Source: Chiloscyllium plagiosum
Taxonomy: Eukaryota
Assembly: GCF_004010195.1 (NCBI RefSeq)
Contig: NC_057718.1
Coordinates: 80,060,555-80,099,291, forward strand
DNA: 38,737 bases
Direction of reading: 5' to 3'
Shown here: positions 1,000 through 29,579 of the stretch, piece after piece
Layout: the number at the start of each line of letters is the position of its first letter
How positions within the stretch are numbered: position 1 is the first letter of the stretch
Translations under genes and position numbers: made by a program
The notes under the pieces: model-generated
What the model saw: only the letters and a program-made list of their open reading frames with translations
The model's database searches: none
Told to the model about the DNA's origin: nothing

Positions 1000-1380
1000 G
1001 GTAATTGCTGCTAGGTTAAAATTTTATTCTAAATTGAAGATTAATTGATCTTGGTCAACTAGACATATTAAAGGACAAATGGAAAAGACAGAGATATAGT
1101 AATACGGGTTCAACCACAAATCAGGTCAGGCAGCATCCAAGGAACAGGAGAATCGATGTTTCGGGCATAAGCCCTTCCTTAGGAGGCTTATGCCCGAAAC
1201 GTCGATTCTCCTGTTCCTTGGATGCTGCCTGACCTGCTGCGCTTTTCCAGCAACACATTTTCAGCTCTGATCTCCAGCATCTGCAGTCCTCACTTTCTCC
1301 TCAACCACAAATCAGCCAGGATTTCATTTAATGGTGGAATATGCTTTAAGACCAAAATGACCGTATCCTGTTCCTGAGGT
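1000..1380 (+). mobile_element. Old CR1 3' end fragment, interrupted by a fold-back insertion
   Basis: atcagccaggatttcatttaatgg...cctgttcct resembles the CR1 3' end at 6089-6165. Confidence 0.6.
1125..1300 (+). mobile_element. Mini fold-back PLE-terminus insertion 1 (family A)
   Basis: 52-nt inverted arms 1122-1173 and 1185-1236 (1 mismatch); 15-bp TSD TCAACCACAAATCAG at 1110-1124 and 1301-1315. Confidence 0.9.
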
Positions 1381-2686
1381 GATTGGGGCTTATAGCTGTG
1401 CTTTTACAATCTGGCATTTCCATGTTGCCTTGCTTCTCCGGAAGTAGCCCTAACTGGCATTCAACGATTATCTCACGACAACTGACAACTTCTTGGAGAT
1501 TTTGTATTCAATCTTTTGTGGCACCCATTGATGTAAATCATCCAGCCACATGGATTTACATAATTTTAACTCTTTTTACTTTTATTCGAGCCTGAGAATT
1601 TTATGCAATCACACCAGAGTCACTAGCTGACATACAAATCTTTCTATTAGGCTGCATGCTAATATAATAACTATTTTCTGAACTAATCAGGCAGCGAGTT
1701 AACTTTTTTTAGTTCATCAACAATTTTCATTCTGTATTCTTAAGGGACTCTTCTTTCTTGACAATATTCCTGTTGTCATATGCTGGAAGAATTTCTTGCT
1801 GTAACATTTAGTATGTAGGTCTATGTTCATTTCTAGATCTCCATTTGCATTAATGACTGCCACTTCTTATTTTTTTTGTAAGTTTAAATTCTGTCATGCT
1901 GGAGGGAATTAAATATGTAACCATCACAAATGCCTACATAGTATGAAGAAGCAAACTGTGTGATGTGAGTTGATGGAATTTAAGTAAAAGCTGCCTTAAA
2001 GAAGTGATGCACTTCCTGACCTACCAGAATGCCCCTTCCACTGGGACACATAGCTGAACGGCATTGGGGAGTGAACAAATGGTTCTCACTGCAATTTGCA
2101 TGAATAGCACAGTAACAATCAGATAATTAGACATTTTTTCTGACAGTTAATTAAGACAAAAGGAGACAACTATTCCCAGAATACAACAGCTATTAGCGAG
2201 CACTTCTCTTCTGATTGAATCTCAAAGCTGGCCTTTAAGGTGAAAATGGCATTATTCTCATCAGCACTTTAAACATCAAGTAAAGGAGATTTTGTCCCTT
2301 GGTCCTTGAACACAATAAATCTACCATTTGTATTTTGTATCCTCTGAACTGCGCGTAATTTATCACTTTATTGAAAAGGTTCCATTATGCTAATGTTTTA
2401 CAAAAATCACTTGATCTTCTATGAGGTCAAAAGGCCATTTTTCTATGCATATGTTTGACTATGACTGATTTCTAATGTCACTGAAAGCAATACAAAAAAT
2501 ATAATGAAGATTATTCCCACATAGAGAAGTGTAAGAGAAAGAAAAGCATTAAGAGACCTCAGCGACAGTGCATTTAGAAAAAAAACTTAAGTCTATGCAA
2601 ATTCTGAAAGAAAAAAAGTCATAAAATAACAATATGAAAGCAATTAACTATTTTTAACAATGACCTTTATTGGTTCAGAGCACACA

Positions 2687-5040: not shown

Positions 5041-5829
5041 ATTTAATCCCAGGAAGTTAATTTGAATACTTCCTGAAAACGGGTGTGGAGATCAGAGTAC
5101 ATAATTATTCTGAAACTGCACATTGCATTGCAAGCAATGCATCAATATTTTGCTGCCCACTGTTTTACATTGTTTTTGTTTGCAACCGATGTTACCTGCA
5201 CTGATCAATGGATTCGTGCATTTGAGGAAGAATTAATATCATAAATTGCTAGTGTTACTGAAAGACAACTTGGTCTTGTTAAAGATAAGGTGCATTGTGG
5301 TGACAGAAAGTCACAGTCACTGTTTTGATACTTTGAGGATTGCTGTCATGCTGCAGTAAAGAGGCTTGTACATTCTGTTGATTCAGAGAGCAAGAGTTCT
5401 CAACTGTTAGCCAGGCCATCATGATGGTATGGTCAAAGCCAATCCAAAACAAGTTCTCAATGGAGATTCTGGCAGAAGATATTAGTGTGATATCAATGGC
5501 TGCAACAGCAGATGAAGGCTGCAGCAGTGGGGAGGTCCCCAGTCATTGAAGTCTTCCTTGCCAGGAAGCTGGATCTACTTTCTGTCAAGGACTCTGTCTG
5601 ATGATATGCAAGAGCATTCTCACATTAAAAGCATAGGGCGTTTACCTAGAGGAGACCAGTTCCACCCCTCACAAACATCTAACAAATATGTGGTCAGAGA
5701 CATGTCTCTAGATAGGGCTAATCAACCACACAAGGACCCACAGAACCCATTACCAGTTACATGGAATTTCCTCGGTGGACTTTTAGTAAGTGATTGCTGA
5801 CAACAACTTTGAGAAATGGCTGAACATGT

Positions 5830-6165
5830 AACATAGTATGTTACAAGAGTTTTTGATTATATTCTGAAGGCTTTAATGCAAGAGCTAAAGAGAAACAGAG
5901 TTTTCCTATATCTAATTGAGGACACTGAGTCACAAACTCAGGAATTAGTAGGATGAAGTAACAATGGAGATTTACAGCTGTTGATGCTAGATCAGTTGTT
6001 AATTTTAAATTTGAGTCAGATAAACCTTTGTTAAGCAAAGGTATTAAGGGATATGGGCCAAAGGCAGGTACATGGAGTTGGGCCCCCGATCAGCCATTAT
6101 CTCAATAAATGGCAGAACAGACTGGAAGGGCTGAATGGCCTATTCCTGTTTCTGAGTTCCTATGT
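5830..6165 (+). mobile_element. CR1 3' end fragment
   Basis: aagggatatggg...gatcagccat...gaagggctgaatggcctattcctgttt...cctatgtt is a typical CR1 3' stem-loop/tail region. Confidence 0.7.
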
Positions 6166-6907: not shown

Positions 6908-7034
6908 TCTTTGCAATGACTGTTATAACCACTGTGAGTCTGGCATCATATCTATGTAAGATAAGGTACAAGATAAGAATGTCAAGGGTTTTTGACTGAA
7001 GAACGTGAATGAACCAGATGGTTTAAATGATAGG

Positions 7035-8185
7035 AGACAGTAAGGACTGCAGATGATGGAAGTCAGAGGTGATAGATGTGAAGCTGGAAGGGCAGAGCAG
7101 GTCAGACAGCATCTGAGGAGCAGGAGAGTCAAAGATTCAGGCCAAAATCCTTTGTCAAGACTGGGGAGGGGAAGGGAGCCCACTTGTATATAGAGGGAAG
7201 GAGGTGGGGCTGGGAGAGGGGTAGGTGGAATGGTGGTAGGTGAAAGAAGGTTTCTTGTGATTGATCATTGGGAAAGATGAAATGGACAGGTGAGTAGGAA
7301 GATGGACAGGTGAGGACAGGTCAGGGAGGTGAAGAGGAGGGGTGAGGTTAGACATGGAATGAGGCTTGTGGAGGAGGGGTTTTGAAGCTGATGAAGTCAA
7401 ATGTTGAGGCCATTGGACTGTAAGCTTCCAGGCGAAAGATAAGGTGTTATTCCTTCAGTTTCCGTTTGGCCTAACTCTTGACAGTTGAGGAGGCCAAGGA
7501 TGGACGTGTCGACGGGGTATTGGGAGGGGGAAATTAAAGTGGATGACAACTGTAAGATCAGGTTGGTTAATGCATACTGAGTGCAAATGCTCCATGAACT
7601 GGTTCCCGAGTTTGTGTTTAGTCTCCCTGACATAGAGGAGACCAAATCAGGAGCAACGGATGCAATAGATGAGGTCGGATGACGTGTAGGTGAATTTCTA
7701 ACGGATCTGGAAGGATTATTTAGGGCCTTGAACAGAGGTAAGAGAGGAGGTGTGGGGGCAGGAGTTGTACCTCTTACTGTTGCAGAGAAAGGTATCAATT
7801 GTAGTGAAGAAGTTGGTGGGGGGTGTAGAGTTGACGATGGAGTTGCAGAGTGAGCAATCCATGTGGAAAGCAGACAGGGGTGAGGAAAGAAATGTCTTTT
7901 TAGTGGTAGGGTCTGATTGAGGTGGTATAAATGTTGGAGGATGAGACAATGGATTCGGAGGTTGATGGGGTGGTTGGTATCGTTATTGTTGTTGAGTCAA
8001 TTTCCAGAGATGGAGACAGAGAGGTACAGGAGGGGGAAGGAGGTGTCAGAAATGGTCCAGCTGAATTTGAAAGTGGGGTGGAAGGTAATGGTGAAGTTGA
8101 TGAATTGTGGGAGCATGAGGCAGCACCAATGCAGTCATCAATATAATAGAGGAAGAAGTGAGGGCTGGTGCTGGTGTAGTTGCAG
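7035..8185 (-). mobile_element. Penelope-like element (family A-related), minus arm: GIY-YIG region, 3' UTR and terminus
   Basis: Minus 7620-7680 encodes NLIYCIRCS*FGLLYVRET (GIY-YIG). Terminus aggactgcagatg...gcaggtcagacagcatctgaggagcaggag matches the mini elements. Inverted homolog of about 8890-10030. Confidence 0.85.
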
Positions 8186-8189
8186 AAGA

Positions 8190-10040
8190 GGGACTACTTC
8201 ATGAATCCTGCGAAGATAATTGCTGATAAGGGTGGCCCGGTGGTAGCATGGCGAACTGACCAATACATGGCTGAGACCAGATGCAAACTCTCTGACACCT
8301 CCACTTACCATCCCTTGACCATGACCTCTGATCACCAAGACATCATCTCCCAGACCATCAAAAACCTCACCATTTTGGGAGATCTCCCTTCTACAGCCTT
8401 CAATGTGATAGTTCCCCAACCCTGCATCATCCATTTCTATCTCCTACACAAAATCCTTAAACCAGACTGCCCCGCTCAATCCAAGTCATTACCTGCTCCT
8501 GCCCTACCAAGCTCATCTCCTCTTACCTCAACTCTGTTCTTTCCCCTTTGTATAGAAACTCCTCACCTACACTCGAGTCACAACCCACTTCCAAAACTTC
8601 AATTCCCTGGCCCCCAACATCTCATCTCTACCCTTTACACCTGCATCCTTCACAAGGAGGGCCTAAAAGCCCTTTGCTTCTTCCTCTCTTGTAGGCCCAA
8701 CTAGTGCCCCTCCACTGACACCCTTATTCGCCTGGCAGAACAGGTCCTCACCCTCAACAACTTTTTATTTTATTCCTCCTATTTCCTACAAACCAAAGGG
8801 GTAGCCATAGGCACCTGCCTGGGCCCCAGCTATTCCTATCTCTTTGTAGGATTCATGGAACAGTCTTTCTTTCGCAACTACACCAGCATCATCCTTCACT
8901 CCCTCCTTCGCTATATTGATGACTGCATCAGTGCTGCCTCATCTCCCCGTGAGGAGCTCACGTAGTTCATCAACTTCGCCAACACCTTCCACCCCACCCT
9001 CTAATTCACCTAGACCATTTCTGACATCTTATTACCCTTCCTGGACCTCTCCATCTCCATCTCTGGACATGGACTCAGCACTGATATCCATTTCAAACCC
9101 TTTACTCCCACAATTACCTCGTCAACACCTCTCGCCCACCTCCTGCAAAGATGCTACCCCATACTACCAATTCCTCCACCTCCACTGCATCAACTCCCAA
9201 GATACTCCAGGACATCGCAGATATCCTTCTACTTTACGGACCATAGTTTCCCCTCCGCAGTATTTAAGGATGCCCTCAACCATATCTCCTCCATCTCCTG
9301 CACTTCTGCCTTCAAACCCCTTGCTCCCAACAACAATGATAGAGTCCACTTAGTCCTCACATACCACCACACCAATCTCCAAAACCAATACATCATCCCA
9401 TGATATCATCCCATGACAGTTCTGCCAGCTACAATCAGACCCCACCACCAAAACGATATTTCCTTCCCCACCCCTGTCTGCTTTTCACAGTGACTGTTCA
9501 CTCTGAGACTCCCTCATCAACTCTACAATGCCCACCAAATTCTCTTCCACACAGTACCTTTCCCTGCAACTGCAAGAGGTGCAACTCCTGCCCCTACACC
9601 TCCTCCCTCACCTTCGTCCAAGGCCCTAAGCAACCTTTCCAGATCTAACAGAGATTCACCTGTACGTCATCCAACTTCATCTATTGCATCCGTTGCACCC
9701 GATGTGGTCTCCTCTATATCGGGGAGACCAAATGCAGACTTGGGGACCAGTTCACAGAGCAACTGCACTCAATACGCATTAACCAACCTGACCTTCCGGT
9801 TGCCATTCATTTCAATTCCCCCCTACCTTCCAACCCCCAGTCATCCTTGGCCTCCTCCATTGTCAGAGTGAGGCCAAACAGAATGGAGGAACAAAACCTT
9901 ATCTTTCGCCTGGGAAGCTTATAGTCCAATGGCCTCAACATTTGACTTCATCAGCTTCAAAATCCCTCCTCACTAAGCCTTATCCCATATCTAACCTCAC
10001 CCCTCCTCCTCACCTCCCTAACCTGTCCATGTTCCTACAT
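8190..10040 (+). mobile_element. Penelope-like element (family A-related), plus arm: RT + GIY-YIG, pseudogenised
   Basis: ADKGGPVV, GVAIGT, RYIDDC (YIDD 8912-8923), CNCKRCNSCPY and SNFIYCIRCTRCGLLYIGET (9670-9729); many frameshifts and stops. Confidence 0.9.
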
Positions 10041-11182: not shown

Positions 11183-11540
11183 TAGGCCTCCATTCTGACA
11201 GAGCGGTTAGGAGAGAAGGTAGAGAGAAGCGAGGGCTGTTGGGAAGGGTAAGTTTTCCCACTTAAAAAAAGAATTACCTCAGGAGTTGGGCCTCCATTTT
11301 GACAGAGCGGCAAGGAGAGAAGCGAGCGCTGCCGGGAAGGGTAAGTTTTCCCACTTAAAAAGGGACTTACCTCAGGAGTCGGGTCTCCATATTGACAGAG
11401 CAGCGACGAGAGGTGGAGAGAAGCAAGGGTTGCTGGGAAGGGACTTACCTTGGGAGTCAGGCCTCCATTTTGACAGAGTGGCGAGGAGAGAAGATGGAGA
11501 GAAGCGAGGGCTGCCGGGAAGGATAAGTTTTCCCATTTTT
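11183..11540 (+). repeat. Tandem array of about four 80-100 bp monomers in the CR1 5' UTR
   Basis: Unit ggcctccattttgacagagcggcgaggagag...gaagcgagggctgccgggaagg starts near 11185, 11288, 11381 and 11460. Confidence 0.9.
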
Positions 11541-11768
11541 TCCTGTCTGGGAGCAGCGGGAGACACAGCGGAAGTGGAGACCAAGAGAGTGCCGGGAAGG
11601 TAAGGACTTAGTATATATTTGGGCTGCGGCTAAACCCGAGATCCCTCCCGCTCATCTCCTCTAACCAGAAGAAAAAGATTCTGTAAGGTAAAGCGTTTTT
11701 TTATCTTTCTTTTTCATATTTAAGTGCATTGTTTGGTTGTAGTTAGTTATTATAAAGGTAGGCTTACA

Positions 11769-12705
11769 ATGGCAGGGGCCTTCAGACCCGTGGCGTGTGC
11801 CTCTTGCTTGATGTGGGAGCTTAGGAATGTTGCTGACGTTCCTGACTCTTACACTTGCAAGACGTGTGTCCAGCTGCAGCTGTTGTTTGACCGCATGACA
11901 GCTCTGGAGCTGTGGATGGACTCATAGTGGAGCATCTGCGATGCTGAGGAGGTCGTGGATAGCACGTTTAGTGAATTGTTCACACCACAGGTTAGAATTG
12001 CTGAGGGAGATTGTGAATGGGTGACCAAAAGGCAGAAAAAGAGTAAGAAGGCAGTGCAGGTGTCCCCTGCGGTCATCTCCCTCTAAAACAGGTATACTGT
12101 TTTAGATACTGTTGGGGGAGATGGCTCACCAGGGGAGGGCAGCAGTTGCCAATATCATGGCACTGTGGCAGGCACTGCTGTTCAGAAAGGTGGGAAAAAG
12201 ACTCGTAGGGCCATAGTCATTAGGGATTATATTGAAAGAAGAATAGACAGGCGGTTCTGTGGCCAAAAATGGGACTCCTGGATGGTGTGTTGCCTCCCAC
12301 TTGGGTCAGGGATGTCACCGATTGGCTGCAGAGCATTCTTAAAGGGAAGGGTGAACAGCCAGTTGTCTTGGTGCATATAGGCAGCAACGATATAAGTAAA
12401 AAACGAGATAAGGTCCTGAAAGAAGAATTCAGGGAACTAGGAGAGAAGTTAAAGAGGGTAAAGAAGGTAGTGATCTCAGGACTACTAACAGTGCCACATG
12501 CTAGCCAGCGGAGAAATGAAAAAATAGGCAGGAAGAACATGTGGCTTGAGGGATGGTGTATGAGGGAGGGGTTCAGGTTTGTTGGACATTGGGACCAGTT
12601 CTGAGGAAGGTGGGACTATTACAAAATGGATTGTCTACATCTGAACCAGACCGGAACCAATGTCCTTGGGAGAGTTTTTGCTACTGCTGCTGGGGAGATT
12701 TTAAA
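11769..12705 (+). pseudogene. CR1 ORF1: CxxC...CxxC zinc finger, coiled coil, SGNH-type esterase
   Basis: ATG at 11769; CASCLMW...YTCKTC, VVLVHIGSNDI, DCLHLN; stops and frameshifts. Confidence 0.85.
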
Positions 12706-13367
12706 CGAATGTGGCAGGGGGCTTGGAACCAGAGGGGAAGACAAGTAGACAGCGAGATGGAAATTGGAGACTGTAAGAATCATGAAGTTAGCGTTGATAA
12801 AATAGCATTAATAAGGGGAAGATGGGGCAGACAGCAGATGAACGCAAAAGAACTGGTGGCCTGAAATGCATCTACTTTAATGCAAAGAGTACAGTGTGTA
12901 AGGCAGATGAGCTTAGGGCTTGGATTGGTGCCTGGGAGTATGACATTATTGCAATCACTGAGACTTGGTTGAAGGAAGGGCATGATTGGCAACTAAATGT
13001 TCCAGGATATAGACCGCTTCAGACAGGACAGGAGGGAAGTAAAAGTGGGGGTGGAGTTGCACTGCTGGTCAGGGATGATATCACAGCTTGGGTAGTGAAG
13101 CATTATGGGTGGAGCTGAGAAATAAGAAGGGTGCAGTTACATTGTTGGGGCTGTATTACAAGCCTCCCAACAGTGAGCGTGAGGCAGAAGAACAAATACG
13201 TAAGCAGATTATGGAAAGATGTAGAGGCAATAGGGTAGTGGTGATGGGAGATTTTAATTTTCCCAACATTGACTGGGATACACTTAGCGTCAGAGGTCTG
13301 GATGGGGTAGAATTTGTAAGAAGCATACAGGAGATTTTCTAGAGCAGTATGTCAATAGTCTGATGAG

Positions 13368-13547
13368 ATTCTGGATTAGAGGTACTGGAAAAGCACAGCA
13401 GTTCAGGCAGGTATTCCTGATGAAGGGCTTTTGCCCGAAACGTCGATTTTACTGCTCCTCGGATGCTGCCTGAACTGCTGTGCGTTTCCAGCACCTCTAA
13501 TCCAGAATCTGGTTTCCAGTATCTGCAGTCATTGTTTTTACCTTTTA
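13368..13547 (+). mobile_element. Mini fold-back PLE-terminus insertion 2 (A-related subfamily) inside the CR1 endonuclease
   Basis: 45-nt inverted arms 13366-13410 and 13466-13510 (2 mismatches); 14-bp TSD AATAGTCTGATGAG 13354-13367 and AATAGTCCAATGAG 13548-13561. Confidence 0.88.
13411..13452 (+). ncRNA. Minimal type I hammerhead ribozyme motif, core intact
   Basis: CTGATGA (13417-13423), A, GGGC-TTTT-GCCC, GAAA (13437-13440), CG, TC; predicted cleavage after C13444. Stem I is weak. Confidence 0.8.
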
Positions 13548-16500
13548 AATAGTCCAATGAGGGAAGGGGCCATATTGGACCTGGTAATGGGGAATGAGCC
13601 AGGACAGGTGGTAGAAGTTGCAGTCGGGGATTTCTTTGGGAACAGTGACCACAATTCTGTAAGTTTTAGAATACTCATAGACAAAGATGAGAGTGGTCCT
13701 AAGGGAAGAACACTAAACTGGGCCAAGGTCAATTATTTCAAAATTTGGCAGGAGCTGGGAAATGTGGACACAGCTATTTGAAGGGAAGTCTGCATTTGAT
13801 ATGTGGGAGGCTTTCAAAGATAGGTTAAAGATAGTGCAGGATAGGCATGTCCCGTTGAAGGCAAAGGATAGGAAAGGCAAGATTTGTGAACCGTGGATGA
13901 CAGGAGAAATCGTACGACTAGCCAAGAGGAAAAGGGAAGCGTACATAAGGTCCAGGCAGCTAAGAACAGAATGGGCCCTAGAGGAATATCGGAAGAGTAG
14001 GACCAGTCTTAAATGAGGAATCAAGCGGCTAAAAGGGGTCATGAAATAGCTTTAGCGAACAAAATTAAGGAGAATCCCAAAGCATTTTATTCTTATATAA
14101 GAAGCAAATGGGTACTTAAAGAAAGGGTTGGTCCATTAAAGGCTAATGAAGGAAAGCTGTGTGTCGAACCTGAGAGAATGGGTGAGATTCTGAATGATTA
14201 CTTTGCATCAGTGTTCACAAAAGAGAGGAACATGATGAATGTTGGGATTAGAGATAGAAGTTTGATTAGTCTGGATCAGGTTGACATAAGTAGGGAAGAT
14301 GTGTTGGCAAGGCTAGAGGTTATTAAATCCTCAGGACTGGATGGGATCTATCCCAGGTTGCTGAGGGAGGCGCAAGAGGAAATAGCTGGGGCCCTAGCAG
14401 ATATCTTTCTGGCATCCTTAAACAGATGAGGTGCCGGAAGACTGCTCACATTGTTCCTCCTGTACAAGAAGGGTAGTAGGGATATTCCAGGTAACTACAG
14501 ACCAGCGAACCTGACGTCAGTGGTGGGAAAGTTGCTGGAGTAGGTACTGAGGGATAAGATCTAATGATATTTAGAAAAGAATGGGCTCATCAGGTTTTGT
14601 GCGGGGGAGATCGTGCCTTACCAACTTAATAGAGGTCTTTGAGGAAGTGACCAAGTTCTTTGAGGAAGTGACCAAGTTGATAGATGAAGGAAGGGCTGTT
14701 GATGTCATATACATGGATTTTATTAAAGTATTTGATAAGGTTCTACATAGTAAAGTAATATAGAAAGTGGAGTCACATGGTGTGCAGGGTGTTCTAGCTA
14801 GGTGGATAAAGAACTGGTTGAGCAACAGGAGACAGAGAGTAGTAGTTGAAGGGAGTTTCTCAAAATGGAGAAAGGTGACCAGTGGTTTTCCACAGGGATC
14901 AGTGCAGGGGCTACTGTTGTTTGTGATGTACATAAATGATCTGGAAGAGGGCACTGTTGGTATGATCAGCAAGTTTGCAGATGACATGAAGATTGGAGTA
15001 GGAGAAAGCATAAGGGAGTCAAAGAACACAGGAGAATATAGATAGACTGGAGAGTTGGGTGGCAAAGTGGCAGATGGAGTTCAATCCAGGCAAATGTGAG
15101 GTGATGCATTTAGGCAAGTCTAATTCTAGAGCAAATTATACAATGAACGGAAGAGCCTTGGGAAAGGTTGATGAGCAGGGAGATCTGGGAGTGCAGGTCC
15201 AATGTACCCTGAAGGTTGCTGCACAGATGGATAGAGTGGGCAAGAAGGCATATGCTTGCCTTCACCGGACAGGGTATTGAGTATAAGAGCTGGCAAGTCA
15301 TGTTGCAATTGTACAAGACATTGGTTCGGCCACATTTAGAATACTGTGAACAGTTCTGGTCACCACATTACCAAAAGGATGTGGACGCTTTGGAGAGGGT
15401 GCAGAGAAGGTTTATGAGGAGGTTGCCTGGTATAGAAGGTGCTAGCTATGAAGAGAGGTTGAGTATATTAGGTTTGTTTTCATTAGAAAAAAGGAGATGG
15501 GGGGGGACGGGGACCTGATTGAGGTCTACAAAATCATGAAGGGTATAGACAGAGTAGATAAAGATAAGCTTTTTCCCAGGGTGAAGGATTCAATAACGAG
15601 AGGTCACGCTTTCAAGGTTGAGAGGTGAAAAGTCTCAGGGGGATACATGCGGCAAGTGCTTTACACAGAGGGTGGTGAGTGTCTGGAACGCGTTGCCATC
15701 AGAGGTAGTGGAGGCAGGCACGGTAGATTCATTTAAGATGCATCTGGACAGATGCATGAGTAGGTGGGGAACAAAGGGATACAGATGTTTAGAAATTGGG
15801 TGACAGGTTTAGACAGTGGATTTGGATCGGCTCAGGCTTGGAGGGCCGAAAGGCCTTTTCCTGGGCTGTAAATTTTCTTTGTTCTTTTCTTTGTTCTTTA
15901 GCACCCAATCACAACACAATGCCATCCATGCTCTCAAAACCAATCACAATATTGTCATCAAACAAGCAGATAAAGGAGGAGACATCATCATTCAGAATAA
16001 ACTGCCTATTGCAAGGAAGTGTACCAACAACTGAAGAACCAGGAACACTATAGGCAACTGCCAGCCTATCTGACCAAAGAGCACACCCATGAACTAAAAC
16101 ATTGATCTTTGATGCAGTCGTTCAGAGCCCTCATCCCATGTACTTCTTGCGTAGGAGACTTCTACTGCCTACTGAAGATACACAAAGCTAACACACCAGG
16201 ACATCCCATCATATCAGGCAATGGGACCCTGTGTGAGAACCTCTCTGGTCATGTCAAAGGCATCTTGAAACCCATTGTACAGGGGACCCCCAGCTTCTGT
16301 TGCGACACTACAGATTTCTTACAGAAACTCAATACCCATGGACCAGTCGAACCGGGAACATTCCTCGTCACAATGGATGTTTCAGCACTCTATACCAGCA
16401 TTCCCCACAATGATGGCATCGTGGCAACAGCCTTAGTACTCAATACCAACAACTGCCAGTCTCCGGCACTATCCTACAACTCATCCGCTTTATCCTCGAT

Positions 16501-18229
16501 CACAATGTTTTCACCTTTGACAACCAGTTCTTCATCCAGACACATGGAACAACTGTGCGGACCAAATTTGCACTCCAATATGCTAACATTTTCATGTACA
16601 AGTTTGAACAAGACTTCTTCTCTAAGCAGGACCTCCAACCAACACTATACACAAGGTATATTGACGACATTGTCTTCCTCTGGACCCATGGCGAGGAATC
16701 ACTGTAACAATGATACAGGGATAACAACGAGTTTCATTCCACATCAAACTCACCATGGACTTTCTTTAGTATCTGCCTCATTCTTGGACACATGCATCTC
16801 CATCAAAGATGGGCACCTCCGCTCCTCATTGTATCGCAAACCCACGGATAACCTCATGATGCTACACTCCTCTAGCTGCCACTCTAAACACATTAAAACA
16901 GCCATCCCCTATGGACATGCCCTATATATATATACACAGGATCTGTTCAGATGAGGGGGAATGTGACAGACACATGGAAGTACTCAAGCATGCTCTTATA
17001 AGAACAGAGTACAATGCTCAACTCATCGATCTCCAGTTCCGACGTGCTACTGCGATAAACCGTAATGACCTCGTTAGGAGACAGACATGAGCTGCAACCA
17101 ATAGGGTACCCTTTATGGTCCAGTACTTCCCGGGAGCCGAAAAACTATGCCATGTTCTTTGCAGCCTGCATAACATTATCAATGAGGATGAGCACCTCGC
17201 CACGATCTTCCCCACATCTCCACTTCTTGCCTTTAAACAACCATCAAACCTCAAACTGATCATTGTTCGCTGCAAACTCCCTGGCCTTCAGGACAACACC
17301 ATACATACTGCCCCGGCAGCTGCTGCAAGACGTGTCAGAATGTCGACATGGATACCACCATTACACATGGGGACACCACCTACCATGTATGTGGCAGGTG
17401 CTCATGTGTCTCTGCCAACGGTGCCTATTTCATATGCTAAAGGCAAGGATGCCGTAAGGCATGGTACATTGGCAAGACCGAGCCCACACACACACACAAA
17501 CACACACTCTCCTCTGGACTGACACACCCACGCAGACAGTCTCTCATCCACAAGCTCTCTCTCATACACTCATGCATACACCCCCCACACTCACATACAC
17601 ACATATAAGTTTGTGGAGTGAATTTGTACTTGCAGAATTACATTTTATTTTGCACAAAAATTGCATAAACCCATGAAACATTCTGTGAATCTCACTTTAG
17701 AAATAGAATCAGCCTGACCTAACATTGGGACACAGACAGACTTTAACTTCACACCTTCAATGCATTATCTGAGCTGAGATGACACCTGTTGTTAAAAGCT
17801 ATCTTGCGAATGTAACTTTTAAAAAGTTCTGGGATTTACATATGAAGGAACTGAAACTAACATGATTTTTCTAAAAGATGAAAGACACAAGCTAAATTTG
17901 TTTAATATTACATTCCATGACACTGCAATCCTGTTGCAATAAATTCTGTGTCGTATGATTCTGCTCCACAACCACCCAATGAAGGAAAGCTAATCCTTTC
18001 TTTTATAATCTATGCCTGTATTAGTAAACCTTAAGATATGGTATGCCTTATTGATTTCTTTCAATCTGTCCTGCCATCTTTAAGTATGGTGGCAGCAAAA
18101 CTACCAGATGGATCTTACACTATCCCAAACTGCAGTGAGGAATCATCATACCACATGATGGCAATGAGTTGCAATATACAAGGCACTGGCAGCTATCTGT
18201 CAGAGACTGGTTGAGCAAACAGTCAGTAG

Positions 18230-19680
18230 TTGGATAGTCTTGGCTATAAGCCCTTAGCATGGTTTTTAATGTCTGGTGCCACCTTTCTAGTGGAGAAAGT
18301 GAGGACTGCAGATGCTGGAGATCAGAGCTGAAAATGTGTTGCTGGAAAAGCGCAGCAGGTCAGGCAGCATCCAAGGAACAGGAGAATCGACGTTTCGGGC
18401 ATAAGCCCTTCACGTCGATTCTCCTGTTCCTTGGATGCTGCCTGACCTGCTGCGCTTTTCCAGCAACACATTTTCAGCCACCTTTCTAGTGCCTCCTGCA
18501 TTTCTGGATGGTATGCAGTAGGCTTGAATTGTTTTATTTCTAAGCTGTCCATAACCTCCTTGAACAATTTTGATGTAAAATGTGACTCTTGACATGACTG
18601 CATCTCTGTGGTTGTCTGTATCTAGTAAAAAAATTGAGTAACTCTTCTACAATCCTTTTAACTGCGATATTGTGTTATGGAACGGCTTCTAAAACCTAGC
18701 GGACACATCCATTATTGTCAACAAACACTGATTTCCACTTTGTTTTAGGTTGGGATCCCACACTATCAATTAAGAGTCTTGTAAAAGGTTCCTCAAATGC
18801 AGGAATTGATATTAAAGGTGCAGATTTTATTACTGCCTGAAGTTTTTCAATTACCTGACATGTATGACATGTCTGGCAAAATTCAACTCCATTCTTATGC
18901 AGTCCAAACCAGTCGTAATATTTTGTATTTTAGTTTGAATTTATCTTAAATGACCTCCTACTGGTAATTAATGTGCTACCCGCAACACCCCCTTTGTACA
19001 ACCCCACTGGTAATATGCTTTGATGAACTTCTGCCCATTTCTCATCTGACTGAATATGTGATGGTCTCTATTTCCTCATTAAGACATCATTTAAGATAGT
19101 AGCACATAGAGATACACTCAGATTCTTCTTCTGTGTATGCTTTTTGATACAATTGCTTCAGTTTTTCATCTTTCTGTTGTAACTCAGTTAATTTCTCTGA
19201 GCTAAAATTATCCTCCACCTGCACCTGTTTTGTCTCAACCATTCAACTTCCTTATCTGTATTCTTTGATTTCTCCTCCTGTTTCAACTGGTGACTTTGTG
19301 ACCTTGTTACCACAGAGTCAGGAAAAATCCCAAGATATGCTTCTTGTAAGACCTCAATTGCCTGATTTTCCACTGGCTTTTCAAGCACAGAGGGCAGCAG
19401 TCCTACCTGTGAACTAGCTGTATCGTTAGCAGGGATGAACTGATTTCCTGCAGCCGAGAGCTCTTCCATTATCCCTCCCACGACTTCTCCATTTCTCTCT
19501 GCTCACTCTAACCTCACTCGACATAATTGAACAATCCTCGTCTCACCGTGAATTCCATGTACTAACACTTTTTCTGGCTTCACTTCTCCTCATCTCTCAA
19601 CATCAAAAACTGACACAATCCTGTATCTCTTAATAACTGTTACCACTTTATTTGATGCTCCTGGCCTGTGCAAGTAAACC
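18230..19680 (-). pseudogene. pol remnant: aspartic protease + integrase
   Basis: LRDTG at 19619-19633; FCQTCHTCQ near 18856-18882; TAYHPEMQEALERWHQTLKTML, split by the insertion at 18293-18476. Confidence 0.85.
18293..18476 (-). mobile_element. Mini fold-back PLE-terminus insertion 3 (family A) inside the integrase
   Basis: Perfect 67-nt inverted arms 18327-18393 and 18412-18478; perfect 15-bp TSD GCCACCTTTCTAGTG at 18278-18292 and 18477-18491. Confidence 0.93.
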
Positions 19681-19851: not shown

Positions 19852-21044
19852 ACACTGTGATTTCATGTGGCCTACTTTATTGCAGTGAAAACACTACAGC
19901 TTTTTAACTTGCTTTTCCCCTTCATGCGTTTCCTTTTTACCCTGTAGTAAGCTATCTTTATGACCTTCATCGAGATCTGTTTTCCCCAATTTCTATCCTT
20001 CATGATAGAAATTGATGGTGGAAGCCAAACTTTGATTTATGAACTAACTTATAATCATCAGCCATTTCAGTTGCTAATCTTGCCGTTTTAACCCTCTGCT
20101 CTTCCAAATGAGTACTCAGTATTTCAGGAAGTGAGTTTTTGAACTCCTCCAAAATAATTGTCTCTCTAAGATTGTCATAGGTTTGCTCTATTTTTAATAC
20201 CCTTATCCACCTGTCAAAATTACTTTGTTTGATCCTTTCAAATTCAATGTTTGTCCGAACAGGGTCCCTCCTTAGATTCCTGAAACCTTGTTTGTAGGCT
20301 TCAGGTACAAGCTTATCTGCACTTAAGATGGCTTTCTTCACCTCCTCATACTCCCCAGACACCTCCTCTAATAGTGATGCAAATACCTCACTAGCTCTAC
20401 CTACTAGCTTTGTTTGGATCAACAAAACCCACATGGTCACTGGCCACTTTATTTGTTTAGCCACCTTCTCAAATGAGATGAAAAGAGCTTCGACATACTT
20501 CTCATCAAATTTAGGCAATGCTTGGACATACTTAAACAGATCCCCACCATGCTTTTGGCTACGATGGGCTTGCTCACCTTCACTAAGCCTACCTTCCACC
20601 TTCAGCTCCACCCTTTCAAGCCGGCTTTCCTGTCTAAGTACCAATTTATGAAGTTCAAACTCTCGCTCTTTCTCTCTTTTCTCTTCCTCCTTTTCTTCTT
20701 CCTCTTTCTCCCTTTCTTCTGCTAGGGCCTTCCCCTCCATTTCCTTTTGTTCTGCTAAAGTGATTCTGTCCTTTTTGTTTTGTTCTGCCAGGGCAATTTG
20801 TTCTTTTTCTCTTTCCTCTGCTTTTAATCAAAATTCAAAATGCTTCATTTTTTTCTCTTTTTTTTGCCTCTAACTCAAACTGCTTCATTTTCAATTGAAT
20901 TTTAGCCACTTCCAAAGATTCTGATGGTGTTTCTAGCAAATTTAAATGCTGAGCTAATGCTGCAATTATACCTCCCTTTCTCATGGATGAAGGCAACTCC
21001 AACTCCAGGTTGTCTGCCAATTCCAGCAGCTTTGCCTTGCTCAC
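19852..21044 (-). pseudogene. gag: charged coiled coil, capsid/SCAN-like domain, CCHC zinc knuckle
   Basis: ORFs 20835..21044 and 20000..20740 (LPKFDEK...FEKVA...WP...LVPEAYKQGFR...IILEEFKNSLP); CFHCNKVGHMKSQC at 19852-19893. Confidence 0.88.
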
Positions 21045-23880: not shown

Positions 23881-24249
23881 CATCCAGCTTGAGTACAGTA
23901 TTGACCATTATTAAAAATAAATCATTATATTATTCAAGTAAAACTAAAGGAGTGAAGAATTTTCAGCAAAACATACATTGAAACTGATACAAGTGAGAAG
24001 GGTTTGCTTGATTACCTTGACCAATCAAAAAATGTAAGACAGATAGATCTTTGTGTTTCATCCAGAGTGATTTTTTGAAACAATACAAATACTACAATGT
24101 CTGAATAAATCTTCCTTTATCATTTAGGTTGTAGAAGTCCTTAAAACCTTAGTGAAGTGTAAAATCATACAAAATAGGAGGCATTTATCCCATTGCGCCA
24201 TTTTGAATCTTTGAAAGAGCTATTGAATTCATTCCACTCACAAGGCTCC

Positions 24250-24580
24250 TTCATTCAGAAGGCAGCTTCCAAACCACTGAACTCTACCGCTTAGAAGGAC
24301 TGCAGATGCAAGTGGTCAGCAGCAACTGAAAGCTCCCCTCCAAGCCACACACCATTCTGATTCAGATTTATAATCACCATCCATCCCTTCACTGTCACTC
24401 AGCCAAAATGCCTAATTTCTTTTCGTAACACCACTTTGGCTGTGCCAACACCATATAAGCTGCATCTGATCAAGAGGGCAGCTAACCAAGCTCAAGAAAA
24501 CAACTCACCACCGCCTTCTCAAGGGCATTCAGGAGTGGTTTTAAATGCTGGCTTGGCGAGTGAAGCTCACATTCTATGAA
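24250..24580 (+). mobile_element. Old LINE 3' end fragment
   Basis: caccaccgccttctcaagggc...aaatgctggc...cacattctatgaa; an inverted homolog lies at 37279-37350. Confidence 0.55.
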
Positions 24581-25179
24581 AGGAAAACTAAAGCTTTCCT
24601 GTTGAAATAGAACATGCTTGGGAAATAAGGTGATAGAATCATAGAATTTTACAGTATAGAAGGAGGTCATTTGATCCGTCGTGTCTGTACTGGCTCCTAA
24701 AAGGCTCCAGCTAGTTCCATTCTTCAGTTCAATCTCCATAGTCCTCTAAACTCATCACTTACAAATACATATTCAGCTCTCTTTTGAAACCTCCCATGGC
24801 ATCTGCTTCCACCACTCTTCCAGGCTGTGCATTCCAAATGCTAATAACTCTCTAAGAGGTCTTTCCATATCTCACTCCAGCTTCTTGCTGATAGTCTTGA
24901 AATTATGATGCCTCGCTGCTGACATACCAACAAAAGGAAACAGAATATCATTCTTTGACCTGACAAAACTGTTAGTAATTTTGAACACCTCAATAAGGTC
25001 ACCTCTTAATCTTCTCTACACGAAGAGAATAAGCCCAATTTCTCTAATCATTCCTTATATCTAAAATCCATCACTCTTATAAATCTCCTTTTCACTTTTT
25101 CCAGTGCTTTAAAATCCTTCCTTAGATAAGATGCCCAGAATTGAACATAATACTTCTAATGTGGTCTGACCAATGATTT

Positions 25180-25351
25180 CGACGTTTCCGGCATAAGCCC
25201 TTCTTCAGGAATTCCTGAAGCCATTCCTGAAGAAGGGCTTATGCCCGAAACATCGATTCTCCTGTTCCCTGGATGCTGCCTGACCTGCTGCACTGTTCCA
25301 GCAACACATTTTCAGCTCTGATCTCCAGCATCTGCAGACCTCACTTTTTCC
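25180..25351 (+). mobile_element. Mini fold-back PLE-terminus insertion 4 (family A)
   Basis: 34-nt inverted arms 25179-25212 and 25223-25256; perfect 14-bp TSD CTGACCAATGATTT at 25166-25179 and 25352-25365. Confidence 0.92.
25221..25260 (+). ncRNA. Minimal hammerhead motif, with a second copy on the minus strand at 25179-25212
   Basis: Plus: CTGAAGA (25227-25233)-A-GGGC-TTAT-GCCC-GAAA-CA-TC. Minus: CTGAAGA-A-GGGC-TTAT-GCCG-GAAA-CG-TC. Confidence 0.75.
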
Positions 25352-27004
25352 CTGACCAATGATTTGCAGAGCTGTCGCATCACTTCCTTGCTTTGATACT
25401 CTATGCCTATATTGATTCACCAAAGGATTCCAGAAGCCTTCTTAAGAACTGTTTCAACTTAACTGGCCACCTTCAGAGAATTATGCACTTCAACCCGAGG
25501 TCCCGCTGAGCCTGTACTCCCCTCACAATTATGCCATGAAGCCAGTATTGTTGTTCTGTGTTTCTTCAGCCAAAATGCATTACCTAACTTTTCTCTGCAC
25601 TGAAATTCATCTGCCAGGTATCTGCCCATTTGGCCAACTTGTCAATGTCCCATTGAAGTCGCCCAGGATCATTGTCACAATTCACTATTCTCAATAGCTT
25701 CGTGTCATCTCAAATTTAGAAATGTTGCTCTCAACACTCATCTTATAATCATTAATGTAAAACAGAAAAAGGAAAGGTCCCAACACTGATCCCTGGGGAA
25801 CACAATTTTCAACTCGTCTCCAAGCTGAGAAATATCCATCTATACCTACCCACTGTTTCCTATCTTTTAGCCAACTTCTAAACCATACTGCCAGGAACCC
25901 ATCAATCCCAAACATTTCTAATTTACTAACTAATCTGCCATGTGGCACTATATCAAATGTTTTCTGAAAACTTCACAGCACTACCCTCATCTACTGTCTG
26001 TATAACCTTGTCAATAACACAATTAAATTTGTCAGACATGCCCTGCCCTTGACAAAGCCATGCTGACTATATAGCATTAACTTATTTTTCCCTAAGTATA
26101 TTTATCTTATCCCACATTATGGCCCCCACTAGGTTTCCCGTTGTTGATGTCAAGTTGACAGGGCTGGAGTTTCCTGGGTTATCCTTTGCAACGTTCTTAA
26201 ACAACAGCATCACATTTGTAATCTTCCAGTCTCCTAGGACTAACCCTGAGTTCAGCGAGACCTGGAAAATTACTGTCAAAGGTTCCGCAATTTACTCCCT
26301 TACCTCTCGCAGCAAGCAAGGAAGTGTGCCATCCGGGCCTGCTGACTTCTCTACCTGGATTGCTGCCAGTCTATTTAGTACTTTTTCTTTATCTATTGCT
26401 AAACTGCTCAGTTGCTCAACACGCACATTTTCAATTGGGCCATTGTCACCATTTTATAGCTTGGTAAAAACAGAAGCAAAGTAGTCACTTCCTACCTCGA
26501 CTGTACTCTTTGCTTCAGTGAGCAGCTTACCCTACTTGTTCCTTATGGGCCCCATTCTTTCAATAATCTTTTACTACTAATATGTTTGAAGAACGTTTTG
26601 CTATTTGTTTAGTGCAGCCTGCAATCCTTTCCCCACTTCCTTTTAGACTCCCTTAGACCAGTCTTAGCCTCTCTTCCGCATTTGAGACACTCTTCCTAAT
26701 GTCCATTGCGTTATTATTCCAATATCCATCATATGCCTCCTTCTCCTTCCTTATTTTCTCATCAATATCCTTAGTCATCCGTATTTGGATACTCCATATT
26801 TATTTCTAATGGATATGTACCTAGATTGCACCTTATTCATCTCTCTTTTGAAAGACTCCCATTTTTCATCCCCTGTTTTATCCATCAACATACATTCCAA
26901 TCAACATGCCCCAGTTCAACTTTTAGACCTCCAAAATCTGTCTTTTTCAAGTCTGGGATCCTAATCCTTGTTTCATTTTTATCCTTTTCCAATTTAATAT
27001 TGAA

Positions 27005-27342
27005 GAGGAGAAAGTGAAGACTGCAGATGCTGGAGATCAGAGTCGAGAGTGTGGTGCTGGAAAAGTACAGCAGATCAGGCAGCATTTGAGGAGCAGGAGA
27101 ATTGATGTTTCGGGCATAAGCCTGTGGGCCGGGGGACTGAGAGATGTATGGGAGGGTTGTCGGGTTGGGGAAAGGTAGCTGGGAATGTGACAGATAGATG
27201 AAGGTGCGGGTGGAAGTGATAGTCTGACAGGAAGGTGGGCAATGGTGCTGGGGCTCCTGATGAAGGGCTTATGCCCAAAACGTTGATTCTCCTGCTCCTT
27301 GGGTGCTGCATAACATGCTATGCTTTTGCAGCACCATGTTTT
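27005..27342 (-). mobile_element. Fold-back PLE-terminus insertion 5 (older, longer)
   Basis: Minus terminus plus 3' UTR, then an inverted arm from 27255 with CTGATGA-A-GGGC-TTAT-GCCC-AAAA-CG-TT. TSD CAATTTAATATTGAA 26990-27004 and CAACTTAATATTGAA 27343-27357. Confidence 0.85.
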
Positions 27343-29579
27343 CAACTTAATATTGAACTTCATTATATTACAATCACAATTTCCAATGTACCCCACCACA
27401 TTCTCCACTCGGACTGCATAATTTCCTAGGACTAAAGCCAGCACAGCTTCGTCCCTGTTGAATGGAAATACACTATTTCAGAAAGTTCACCTGAACACAT
27501 TTCAGGAATTTCTCCCCTTCTGGGCCCACACCCTACCTTTTTCCCAGTGAACCCTAAGATTATTAAAATCACCAATTATAGCAACTCCACTTGCCCTGTA
27601 GATTTCCACAATCTGCCTACAAATGCTCTCTTTGGTGGACTATAATTAATACCTCAAATTCCACATCCAACCATCTAGATTCCAATTCAGGAACTACAAT
27701 TCATTCAAAGGCAATTTTACTATCTTTGATAAAAACTGCTACAACACCTCCCTTTTTACCTGTTTCTACAGAAAACTTGAGAACCCAGGATATTGCTTAT
27801 CCAGTCCTGTTCTGGCTTGAGCCACATTTCTGTCAATGCTACTATGTCACAGAGCAACTTCTGTTTCCAGTTCCGCAATTTTGTTCATTCTACTCCGTAC
27901 GCTTTTATACATACAATTTTATCCTGCCTTTATCCCTTTCTTCTTCAGTGGAAGGCGACTATCTCTTTGTTTACTGTCAACACTCAGGCCTTCTCTCACT
28001 TCCTTGTCCCCATTTCCTATCTTCTCTCTTTTGCCCTCTTTGGTACTTCCAAACTAGGCCTATTAGTCCAGCCATCCCCGCCTTACAAGATTAAATCCAC
28101 CCCCAATACATTAGTTACTCTCTCAGCCAGGAGATTAATTTCATTTCTGCTCAGGTTAAGCCCATCTCTTTTGAACAGCTTTCTCCTTTCCTAAAAGTGA
28201 TCCCAATGTTCCAAAGCTCTACACCCATCCCCTTCTACACCATCGCTCAAGCCATGAACCTACCTACCTGATCTACCTTTGCCTAAATAACAACACTTGT
28301 GGCACCGGTATTATTTCTGAGATGACTACCTTCAAGGTCCTCTGTTTCAACCTAACTCTTATAACTGATCCTGCAAGACCGCCAAGCTATCCCTGTCAAT
28401 ATTGTTGGTTCCCACATGGACCACAACTACTGGTTGCTCACACTCCCTTTCCAGAAGTTTATCCAGGAATTCCACTGTGTTCCAAACTCTTGCAACTGTG
28501 AGGCAACAGAATAACATGACTCACGATCTAAGCTGCAAACGAGGCTGTCTATCCCTTAGACTAGTGACTCACCTACAATCTTTCTAACCTGCCTACTAGC
28601 CTCTCTCTCTTTTCCCAGAGTAGCTTTGGGCAACATGGTCCTGTCATTCACCTTGAGTCATCCACACCCAACTCAGTCATGTTGTTCACTCAGTAGGCAT
28701 CTAAAAATTCACACCTGTTAGACAGCTCCAAGGAGTCTTGGATTTCCTGGGCCTGCTGTCTCTTTTCTTTTCAGTCAGCCACTCATCGCCACCTCTACTT
28801 TTTGCCCATTTAGCACAAATGGAGTGACCACCTTCTGGTATGACTGCTCCAGAAATCTCTCTCCTTCTTGTACAGTGCACAGTGAAAAAGAGTCACTGCT
28901 CCAAATCAGCAATATGTTGCTCATGGACTACTACCCTTTGAACTTCAAGTATCTGTGACCATCCTGGATATCTTATGGATCCAAAACATTCCACATTTTT
29001 ATGCCACACACATCACAAGCTTTCCCAAAGTTCCTGCCATCTATATAGGTCAAAATGATGCACACTGCTGAGGCTCTACAGTTTCTAAGCCAAAAAGAAA
29101 TACTTTAATACCCCTTCTCTCTCTTTTTGCTTCAAAGAGTGAGGGAAATACAATATAATAATGAAATGTTTCGGTCTTCACTGTTCTTTGACACTTTCCC
29201 TCCACAATCCGTCTGTTAGTTGTGATCAGCAAGCCGATTCTCCCAGAATCCCCTTGGTTACTTCTCAGTACCACACCCTGTCCTCAGATGCCATGGATGT
29301 AGGAAAGCTGTGAACAAAATGGAGGGAGAGGAAGGGGTTTCTCGGCAGAAAGCCACATCTTCTCAGGTTGGTTTAGCAAACATTTCTCCTATATGAACCT
29401 CAGTAAGGCACAATGACTGGAATTTTAAGATGTTGCAATTATTCTGTCACAATTTGGGAATTCGGGGGCACCCCTAACTCAGTCAGTTGTGGGAAATCCA
29501 ACTCAATTTGTGAGCAGCAGGCAGCTAACTGTCTGCCATCAGTGTTCATATCTTCTTAAGGAACAAAGTGTCCCTTTCA

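Follow-up and report, generated by a model that had tools for sequence, protein, structure and literature searches.

We found that the five hairpin-like inserts of the window (the whole analysed stretch of 38,737 nucleotides from Chiloscyllium plagiosum) are best read, on the basis of sequence comparisons, as insertion units of a Neptune-type Penelope-like retroelement (PLE) that lack the ORF. All five inserts were confirmed, each as one arm carrying the tail of the element (tailed arm) and an inverted partner arm, joined head-to-head. The inserts correspond to the two ends of an ordinary PLE insertion minus the ORF, and their ends are shared by a copy that does bear the ORF (L250). Target-primed reverse transcription probably took place twice per insert, once on each strand of a staggered cut, with each product copying the 5' leader and the two then being joined head-to-head.

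Structure of the inserts in the window

A preliminary description had reported five independent insertions with target site duplications (TSDs) of 14-15 bp, and both the coordinates and the TSDs hold. Template positions are counted from the final base of the tail (position 1).

Copy 1 lies between a 15-bp left TSD (1110..1124) and the same sequence at 1301..1315 (15 of 15 nt match). Its short inverted arm (1125..1184, minus strand) covers template positions 68 to about 120-127 and has a 3-nt microhomology with the TSD end. The tailed arm (1185..1300, plus strand) runs from position 116 to 1, is 99% identical to the young copy L019, and is without the CUGA half of the hammerhead core. Copy 2, 84% identical to the young reference, is from an older subfamily and interrupts a LINE-like coding sequence. 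Its 14-bp TSDs (13354..13367 and 13548..13561) match at 12 of 14 nt, with two mismatches. The tail-less inverted arm (13368..13410, minus strand), also of the older subfamily, extends from the tail boundary to about position 76, and the tailed arm (13413..13547, plus strand) starts at position 129 and includes, at 13417-13444, a minimal hammerhead core whose stem II is paired.

In copy 3, the left TSD (15 bp, 18278..18292), which is the single copy present at the empty site of organism B, and the right one (18477..18491) match at all 15 nt; the tailed arm (18293..18411, minus strand) covers positions 2 to 120 and the tail-less arm (18413..18476, plus strand) positions about 101 to 38. Copy 4 has 14-bp TSDs at 25166..25179 and 25352..25365 (14 of 14 nt). 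Its short inverted arm (25180..25212, minus strand) runs from position 97 to 129, followed by a 9-nt junction insert, and retains a hammerhead core with one change that breaks stem II; the tailed arm (25222..25351, plus strand, positions 130 to 1) has a core with paired stem II at 25227-25254. Copy 5 (338 bp) is flanked by 15-bp TSDs with one mismatch (26990..27004 and 27343..27357; 14 of 15 nt). Its tailed arm (27005..27254, minus strand) covers positions 1 to 116 and, after an internal deletion, about 154-252, passing the hammerhead and entering the 3' untranslated region. One catalytic position of the core is altered in the tail-less arm (27255..27342, plus strand, positions 127 to about 38-40).

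The earlier label 'hammerhead-centred' is apt for the position of the fold, but not for the core itself: copies 1 and 3 end before CUGA, and the full core with paired stem II is present in copies 2 and 4 only. The same description called the inverted copy variably truncated. This is right for copies 1 and 4, the shorter arms of which begin at template positions 68 and 97; in copies 2, 3, and 5 the outer end is the tail boundary.

Evidence for genuine insertion

The empty-site check covered copy 3. Run X9, from a second, related organism, has a 407-nt contig in which copy 3 is missing and a single TSD is left. The one piece listed for a 397-nt contig of X13 is compatible with that empty site as well. 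The lack of empty orthologous sites had been named beforehand as an argument against the insertions; for copy 3 such a site exists. These observations confirm that the inserts were made by genuine insertion events with the TSD created on insertion.

We give almost no credence to an assembly or library artefact, i.e., to fold-back chimeras. The assembly is gapped, palindromes are error-prone, and no contig spanned a whole insert. Still, TSDs were found at 53 of 55 fold-backs, the orthologous empty site carries one TSD, the arms have decayed independently and so differ, and at the left junction of copy 3 a run X2 contig reads across with no mismatch, though by only 22 nt.

Abundance, size and junctions

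All genome-wide counts were obtained by exact-pattern searches. A 53-mer of the terminus had 12,011 exact matches in the genome, while its reversed control had none. The samples comprised the first 22 Mb of contig C1 and three 200-kb blocks chosen by the analyst. Among the 89 young termini sampled, 55 were fold-backs; 11 of the 89 loci were unreadable due to assembly gaps, which removed long copies. In 600 kb we counted 22 hairpins, roughly one per 27 kb, and extrapolation from these 600 kb gives a genome total of roughly 100,000 fold-backs. The TSD length was 14-16 bp in 43 of 53 cases. The best Rfam matches of the inserts were sub-threshold miRNA families. The subfamily alleles of the fold-backs track those of the long copies.

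The earlier view that the inserts are abundant non-coding products of PLE reverse transcriptase and GIY-YIG activity is supported by these data. It had left two options, a stereotyped abortive insertion, which fits, and a separate non-autonomous, ribozyme-linked hairpin element. The latter, as a MITE-, SINE-, or retrozyme-like element multiplied from a single master hairpin or a small number of them, would account for the very high copy number, for the narrow size range (most fold-backs are 160-240 bp), and for the one complex junction that L007 and L010 have in common. However, 51 different junction signatures were seen in 56 fold-backs, with repeats mostly at microhomology points; neither a master junction nor the single fixed internal structure of a MITE- or SINE-like master was found. 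The same ends also bound ORF-bearing copies and a length continuum reaching 0.4, 0.8, 2.6, and 3.7 kb, there are no tandem arrays, two of the five window copies have no core, and the subfamily alleles follow those of the long copies. A separate element is thus very unlikely. The variety of junctions, together with the empty site, bears out the earlier proposal that the hairpin is made anew at each insertion.

The parent element

The ORF-bearing copy L250 consists of an inverted tailed arm, a pseudo-LTR (pLTR), the ORF, and a tail-less 3' end, with a 14-bp TSD. Its reverse transcriptase matched Pfam RVT_1 with an E-value of 1.7e-6, just under the curated cut-off, and a weak match to GIY-YIG (E 0.066) was found on L252. 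Relatives at 42-50% carry both domains, and DKG-type and YIG motifs were seen. The parent element thus has the features of an endonuclease-positive PLE, namely, a reverse transcriptase with a C-terminal GIY-YIG domain, an inverted 5'-truncated copy beside the 5' end, a TSD made on insertion, a minimal hammerhead in the pLTR, and a tail of 30-40 bp at one end only (4 of 104 arm pairs had two tails).

Between the reverse transcriptase and the endonuclease, L249 and L250 have the linker C-x4-C-x2-C, in agreement with the Neptune motif CX2-5CxxC as it appears in the accessible text of PMC8557442. The putative assignment to Neptune is based on this linker motif, which Nematis shares.

At 7032..10028 the window also has an older pair from this element family, inverted head-to-head and of kilobase scale. 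No TSD was established for this pair, and a Pfam search of the degraded PLE frames of the window gave no domain match; remnants of the reverse transcriptase and endonuclease are 68-70% identical to L250.

Starts of the two arms

We observed that the end of the tail is where the tailed arm begins, while 46 of 53 partner arms start 33-41 nt inside and are without the outer 32-40 nt. This second start is the known PLE 'tail' boundary and not a random truncation, a fixed site that the notion of variable truncation had overlooked. Genome-wide, the 33-mer at positions 36-68 had 43,672 matches, and 22,731 once seven tail bases were added. Solo tail-less arms with TSDs were also found (L188, L193, L196, and L201). 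On each side, 25 of the 53 junctions had microhomology of at least 2 nt, compared to 15.6% expected (p=7e-8).

One could suppose that a single priming was followed by self-priming, with the cDNA (or an antisense transcript) folding back and being copied into the inverted arm. A similar idea, self-priming on an antisense template, was proposed in PMC3846280 to account for PLE inversions of the head-to-head kind. Many junctions are indeed short palindromes or templated inserts, and two arms from the same insert match in their subfamily alleles far more often than random pairs do: in 88-95% of pairs they agree at subfamily-diagnostic sites, with discordances of 6/86, 10/86, and 3/62 against 38-48% expected for random pairs. 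This agreement also fits one RNA used twice, DNA copying, or two RNAs, and the A/G discordance at diagnostic sites (15/234) exceeds the 3.0% background for any change. Moreover, a tail-less arm cannot copy a tailed arm shorter than itself, yet in 22 of the 53 pairs it exceeded the tailed arm by over 5 nt, which simple snap-back is unable to produce. In L197, L202, and L205 the tail-less arm reaches position 129 plus an extra C, whereas the tailed arm starts at 116-117. Self-priming leaves unexplained the fixed start at 33-41, the microhomology there, and the solo tail-less inserts, and we regard it as unlikely.

Inner ends of the arms and the hammerhead

The inner ends fell at positions 114-133 in 54 of 77 tailed arms and in 46 of 56 partner arms, i.e., at the 5' edge of the hammerhead and away from its cut site. 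In 600 kb, 12 cores with paired stem II were found, compared to none in 20 shuffles; a search of the terminus against Rfam gave no hammerhead match. Stem I of the predicted hammerhead has only 2-4 bp. We rejected cleavage by the hammerhead as an explanation for where the fold lies, since the ends sit 15-35 nt upstream of the cut site and only isolated arm ends lie near its predicted position (97/98).

In full-length retroposons, an extra cap-derived 5' G marks run-off at a capped end. Position 129 is the A of an initiator-like motif. Genome-wide exact patterns had, after position 129, the templated G in 19,300 cases, C in 4,332, T in 2,028, and A in 820; the C excess was absent after positions 127, 128, 130, and 131. 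The extra C occurs on both tailed and tail-less arms. When 30 extra-C loci were read by eye, the base was clearly untemplated in about 12, could derive from the partner arm in seven, and was a substitution in one; in several solo arms it could derive from target microhomology. In older subfamilies, C followed the stop in 1,120 cases and G in 3,397, in a pattern that pools subfamilies with different templated bases. The extra base at arms ending on the initiator-like A is what a copied cap would give. Run-off at a cap at 129 is a candidate explanation. Against it stand the many arms that pass 129 (the 19,300 G matches; about 20 of 30 inspected go beyond 134) and the loci at which the C could come from the partner arm or from microhomology.

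Among the data sets listed for the window, none was RNA. On L158, RNA reads came from passenger copies in host transcripts, and neither these reads nor contigs presumed to derive from RNA showed a pile of molecule starts. The reads are uninformative on the start site, because 95% of the X21 reads continue into unlike sequence and X22 yielded no reads.

Two-ended priming could also be combined with stalling near 128-130, at a folded or protein-bound hammerhead or at an RNA-RNA dimer within a longer RNA, with the C added by terminal-transferase activity. In every subfamily seen, the distance from the stop to the core downstream of it is 3-5 nt, there is a small set of arms ending at the palindromic core near 101, and minimal hammerheads are believed to function as dimers (PMC4209133). 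Nevertheless, the enzyme would already have passed stem II and the core before stopping, and the extra base is tied to one position, the A of the initiator-like motif. Folding predictions for the leader gave no significant global structure and weak local folding (z from -0.3 to -2.4). The anole enzyme read through the hammerhead in vitro, and the product length followed the template 5' end, according to the accessible text of PMC11167929. Stalling is, in our view, improbable.

A model of insertion

In the two-ended priming that we favor, the GIY-YIG domain would cut both strands about 15 nt apart and leave 3' overhangs, each of which would anneal by 1-4 nt to one of the two internal start sites. 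The reverse transcriptase would then run off the capped RNA 5' end at the initiator-like A just upstream of the minimal hammerhead, with the cap copied as C at the run-off end. The hammerhead would sit at the fold since the RNA begins there, and not through cutting there. Repair is proposed to trim and join the two cDNA 3' ends, which would explain why every junction is different. Single priming alone would give solo inserts of 95 or 130 nt, and priming on the 3' copy of the repeat would give long arms. A run-off end jumping back into the RNA would produce direct mini-tandems and, at full length, pLTR-ORF-pLTR. Direct two-unit mini-tandems are a minor class elsewhere in the genome; of 30 extended tails, nine reach at least 60 nt into the ORF, and several have a second arm, with its start at 128-130, before or after them.

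Retroviral strong-stop DNA is a short 5'-leader cDNA that is able to jump. A more tentative, and rather doubtful, extension is that PLEs insert as a two-RNA, two-enzyme complex priming both nicks, with the leader hammerheads pairing the RNAs rather than cutting, and with the run-off cDNA of 95-130 nt as a strong-stop intermediate whose jump into RNA builds the pLTR. If so, this intermediate would be preserved in the roughly 100,000 fold-backs of the genome, and the extension would replace the antisense self-priming model.

Comparison with known systems

The accessible texts of PMC3846280 and PMC8557442 describe the endonuclease-positive PLE unit as pLTR-ORF-pLTR with an adjacent inverted pLTR, a 30-40 bp tail at one end, and a TSD. 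In outline this anatomy is thus published, as are opposite-strand hammerhead pairs (PMC4209133). The head-to-head inverted arm, the one-end tail, the TSD, the pLTR reaching into the ORF start, and the initiator-like motif are common to that unit and our inserts. On the other hand, the ORF is absent here and the ORF-less form is the majority product, the TSD is 14-16 bp compared to 8-10 bp in rotifer, and the published explanation is self-priming on an antisense template. The literature surveyed contained no account of PLEs with twin priming or a cap-derived base, nor of ORF-less double ends as their predominant product; Repbase, Dfam, subscription papers, and bioRxiv supplements were outside its scope and may hold one.

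For green anole Poseidon in vitro, the accessible text of PMC11167929 reports that both strands are cut and extended, that reverse transcription starts at two internal sites bounding the tail, and that hammerhead cleavage is dispensable, with the hammerhead about 110-130 nt upstream of the starts; the same features are seen or proposed here. That source left the later insertion steps unvalidated, and the PLE cycle is called 'still undefined' in PMC8557442. Because double ends without the ORF are the most frequent product in this genome, the insertion steps become countable (cut geometry, two starts, run-off, and joining). These numbers weigh against simple self-priming and suggest a precisely defined RNA start, and copying of the first 95-130 bases of the RNA at both cut ends of the target site would expose the insertion mode of a poorly understood class.

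In L1 twin priming, two primers at one target site lead to an inversion. The two L1 cDNAs copy different parts of one RNA, whereas here the two cDNAs cover an identical stretch of 95 nt, each starting from one of two fixed internal sites.

Metazoan PLE minimal hammerheads share with ours the CUGANGA core, the extra base before stem II, the palindromic positions 15.2-16.2, and the short stem I (PMC4209133). In Schistosoma, that source reports dispersed solo hammerhead motifs and opposite-strand pairs 100-700 bp apart. It proposes self-cleavage as their role, whereas the ends here are not clustered at the cut site, and its accessible text has no TSD, arm, or junction analysis.

In annotation, such hairpins will be mistaken for MITEs, microRNA precursors, or functional ribozymes. 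Animal non-LTR retrozymes (10.64898/2026.07.22.740005, accessible text) are likewise non-coding, hammerhead-bearing, and derived from PLE pLTRs. We rejected this class for the inserts, given the head-to-head arms and the coreless copies 1 and 3: retrozymes are head-to-tail tandems with a hammerhead in each unit, while the inserts are TSD-bounded and often coreless.

Structure and abundance of the inserts

Each of the five mirror-image inserts (copies 1-5, at window 1125-1300, 13368-13547, 18293-18476, 25180-25351 and 27005-27342, with lengths of 176, 180, 184, 172 and 338 bp) was built of an inverted arm and a tailed arm, which includes the outer tail of the Penelope-like element (PLE), joined head to head. 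The preliminary description was right in seeing five insertions with target-site duplications (TSDs) of 14-15 bp: the flanking direct repeats were 15, 14, 15, 14 and 15 bp long with 0, 2, 0, 0 and 1 mismatches, respectively. The target of copy 2 was an element at window 11184-15759 that we take to be LINE-like; it carries 93-bp tandem repeats at the 5' end, ORF2 remnants and a GDSL esterase-like ORF1 (E 6.5e-5). An empty site, proposed earlier as a check, was seen for copy 3 in a second, related organism (sequence run X9, contig 25), where 17947-18277 is joined directly to 18477-18553 with one TSD. A contig of another run, X13, has a length fitting this empty site, with only its first piece among the matches listed.

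The probability of an artefact is negligible in our estimate. The inserts are real and abundant; rather than forming a new element, they represent a variation on an insertion structure already known. Inverted pseudo-LTRs (pLTRs) with a tail and a TSD are described in published work (PMC3846280, PMC8557442, PMC8969392), as are hammerhead pairs on opposite strands (PMC4209133). Retrozymes, as presented in bioRxiv 2026.07.22.740005, are tandem, while the inserts here are head to head. Their value is that of a countable record of how PLEs insert.

Positions are numbered on a real young copy (L019), beginning with the final base of its tailed end and increasing inwards. In this numbering we place the CUGANGA core at 119-125 and stem II at 106-117, and the predicted hammerhead cut separates 98 from 97. 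The term "hammerhead-centred" holds for position only: copies 2 and 4 alone have a complete core and a paired stem II, and the arms of copies 1 and 3 end short of the core. The short arm of copy 4 (window 25180) starts at template position 97, adjoining the predicted cut site, and spans the 5' cleavage fragment alone. None of the sampled partner arms (0/53), i.e. the inverted and mostly tail-less second arms, started at 97, and the position in copy 4 may be due to chance.

A 53-mer of the tail had 12,011 exact matches in the 3.56-Gb genome; a 36-mer from the ORF start had nine, with long young copies hidden by assembly gaps. In three chosen 200-kb blocks we found 22 head-to-head pairs (~1 per 27 kb), 14 of them with a TSD call, which extrapolates to roughly 100,000 pairs per genome. 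The sample of young termini was the first 90 of 100 listed 53-mer matches, 89 of them distinct, and covers only the beginning of contig C1. It was called as 57 fold-backs, 21 single arms and 11 loci running into gaps. Removal of a false pair (L002) and a two-tailed pair without a TSD (L007) left 55 fold-backs; a TSD was present in 53, and in 43 of those it was 14-16 bp long.

Outer ends and start sites

The partner arm started at positions 33-41 in 46/53 cases, so the "variably truncated inverted copy" noted before has a fixed start, except in the remaining seven. Genome-wide, a 33-mer had 43,672 matches and 22,731 once seven tail bases were added, a drop far exceeding the effect of ~3% per-site decay. 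The segment missing from partner arms is the PLE tail. For the anole enzyme, two internal RT start sites flank the tail, and both strands are reported to be cut and extended (PMC11167929); two start sites bounding the tail are thus common to both systems.

Microhomology of at least 2 nt was observed in 25/53 cases at each of the two outer junctions, compared to 15.6% by chance. A few extra template bases beyond the tailed end were frequent and, among 30 loci picked for an extended tail, nine reached at least 60 nt into the ORF; therefore, the template continues past the tail. Solo arms with TSDs were found in both tailed and tail-less kinds. Two arms of older subfamilies also occur in the window: a solo tail-less one at 36265-36354 (positions 35-123) and a long tailed one at 37354-37826.

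Inner ends and the extra base

Inner ends fell at positions 114-133 in 54/77 tailed arms and 46/56 partner arms, with a peak at 128-129 (50/188 arms in a pooled set with some overlap). They lie upstream of the hammerhead core and away from the cut site. RT stalling at the hammerhead is, in our estimate, an unlikely cause of the inner stop. Position 129 is, we presume, the A of a motif fitting the initiator consensus. An internal initiator promoter is described for D. virilis Penelope (PMC2377424) and an initiator-like motif for rotifer pLTRs (PMC3846280). RNA reads matching L158, which came from passenger copies in host transcripts, revealed no start site.

Genome-wide, the base following 129 was the templated G in 19,300 cases, C in 4,332, T in 2,028 and A in 820. 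Part of the T count reflects a palindromic overlap; decay of the templated G would yield mainly A. In the pooled set, an extra C followed 14/26 arms ending at 129, compared to 4/24 at 128, 1/7 at 127 and 1/8 at 130. Inspected by eye, 30 extra-C loci included ~12 clearly untemplated cases, seven possibly derived from the partner arm, several possibly from the target and one substitution. In older subfamilies the counts were 1,120 for C and 3,397 for G, a confounded comparison. About 20 of 30 inspected G loci extended well past 134; therefore, long arms are common too.

Origin of the two arms

Fold-backs carried 51 different junction signatures in 56 cases, and the head-to-head junction is formed afresh at each insertion, as had been proposed. 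Copying of a master element, for which many identical breakpoints were expected, is accordingly very improbable. A complex junction is shared by L007 (two tails) and L010 (one tail), 114 kb apart on C1, and that of L119 is similar; this likeness may reflect recurrent slippage or hairpin re-copying.

Subfamily alleles of the two arms were discordant in 6/86, 10/86 and 3/62 comparisons (random expectation 38-48%; background 164/5,552). Since most alleles are common to both arms, the two share a source locus or a time of origin; this fits one RNA used twice as well as two sister RNAs.

Self-priming on an antisense template is a published explanation of head-to-head inversions (PMC3846280). The tail-less arm, however, extended past the tailed arm by more than 5 nt in 22/53 cases (the opposite held in 15/53). 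Plain snap-back fails in these 22, because a copy is never longer than its template and a first strand that lacks the tail cannot provide one. For example, at L197, L202 and L205 a tail-less or shorter-ended arm ran to 129 with an added C; the tailed arm there began at 116-117. We thus consider self-priming a doubtful source of the inverted arm, a shade less likely than stalling is for the inner stop.

The mechanism that we favour, and think probable, is two-ended priming on the RNA leader, followed by run-off and joining. A staggered double nick would open the target, both overhangs would prime cDNA, RT would run off at the capped RNA 5' end, and end joining would connect the two cDNA ends. 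Direct observations concern the TSD size, the two start positions, the microhomology, the stop position, the extra base and the arm asymmetry. The literature searched (without Repbase, Dfam and key subscription papers) yielded no account of twin priming or of a cap-derived base in PLEs.

Parent element and longer relatives

At locus L250, flanked by a 14-bp TSD, an inverted tailed arm is separated by a gap from a direct pLTR; an ORF interrupted by a stop and frameshifts and a tail-less 3' end follow. Its RT motifs match RVT_1 (E 1.7e-6). In addition, the parent element carries a C-x4-C-x2-C linker and ends in a GIY-YIG-like region; the best-matching named proteins (76% and 72%) belong to a bamboo shark. 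The linker agrees with the motif given for Neptune (PMC8557442), which makes the parent a putative Neptune member. Larger fold-backs (0.4, 0.8 and 2.6 kb) share both ends with the mini fold-backs, and an older inverted pair of 3 kb lies at window 7032-10028. The mini fold-backs are the short extreme of one continuous series of insertions.

Several loci had two direct arms separated by ORF 5' sequence, all within one insertion, in the order leader, tail, 60 nt to 1.9 kb of the ORF start and a second leader, the second arm starting at 128-130. An extra G preceded the second arm at L154, L160, L166 and L246; the other loci were L155/L241, L242, L244 and L248. We read these mini-tandems as run-off cDNA that jumped back into RNA, a step that would build a pseudo-LTR. 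At L158 (1653 to 1395), RNA-guess contigs from X15 and X17, which represent two organisms, return from the 5' part of the ORF to position 130; this is either an old shared mini-tandem within a host transcript or circular RNA.

Other elements in the window

A second PLE family has two copies in opposite orientation (window 15902-17952 and 33508-34856) that are 73-85% alike and have RT-like frames. Ends of a more distant terminal-repeat family, with only the middle of the arm in common, are at window 739-835 and 29581-29677. A 275-aa frame at window 20000-20827 (minus strand) matches a SCAN domain (E 2.7e-9) and is probably gag from the remains of an LTR retrotransposon.
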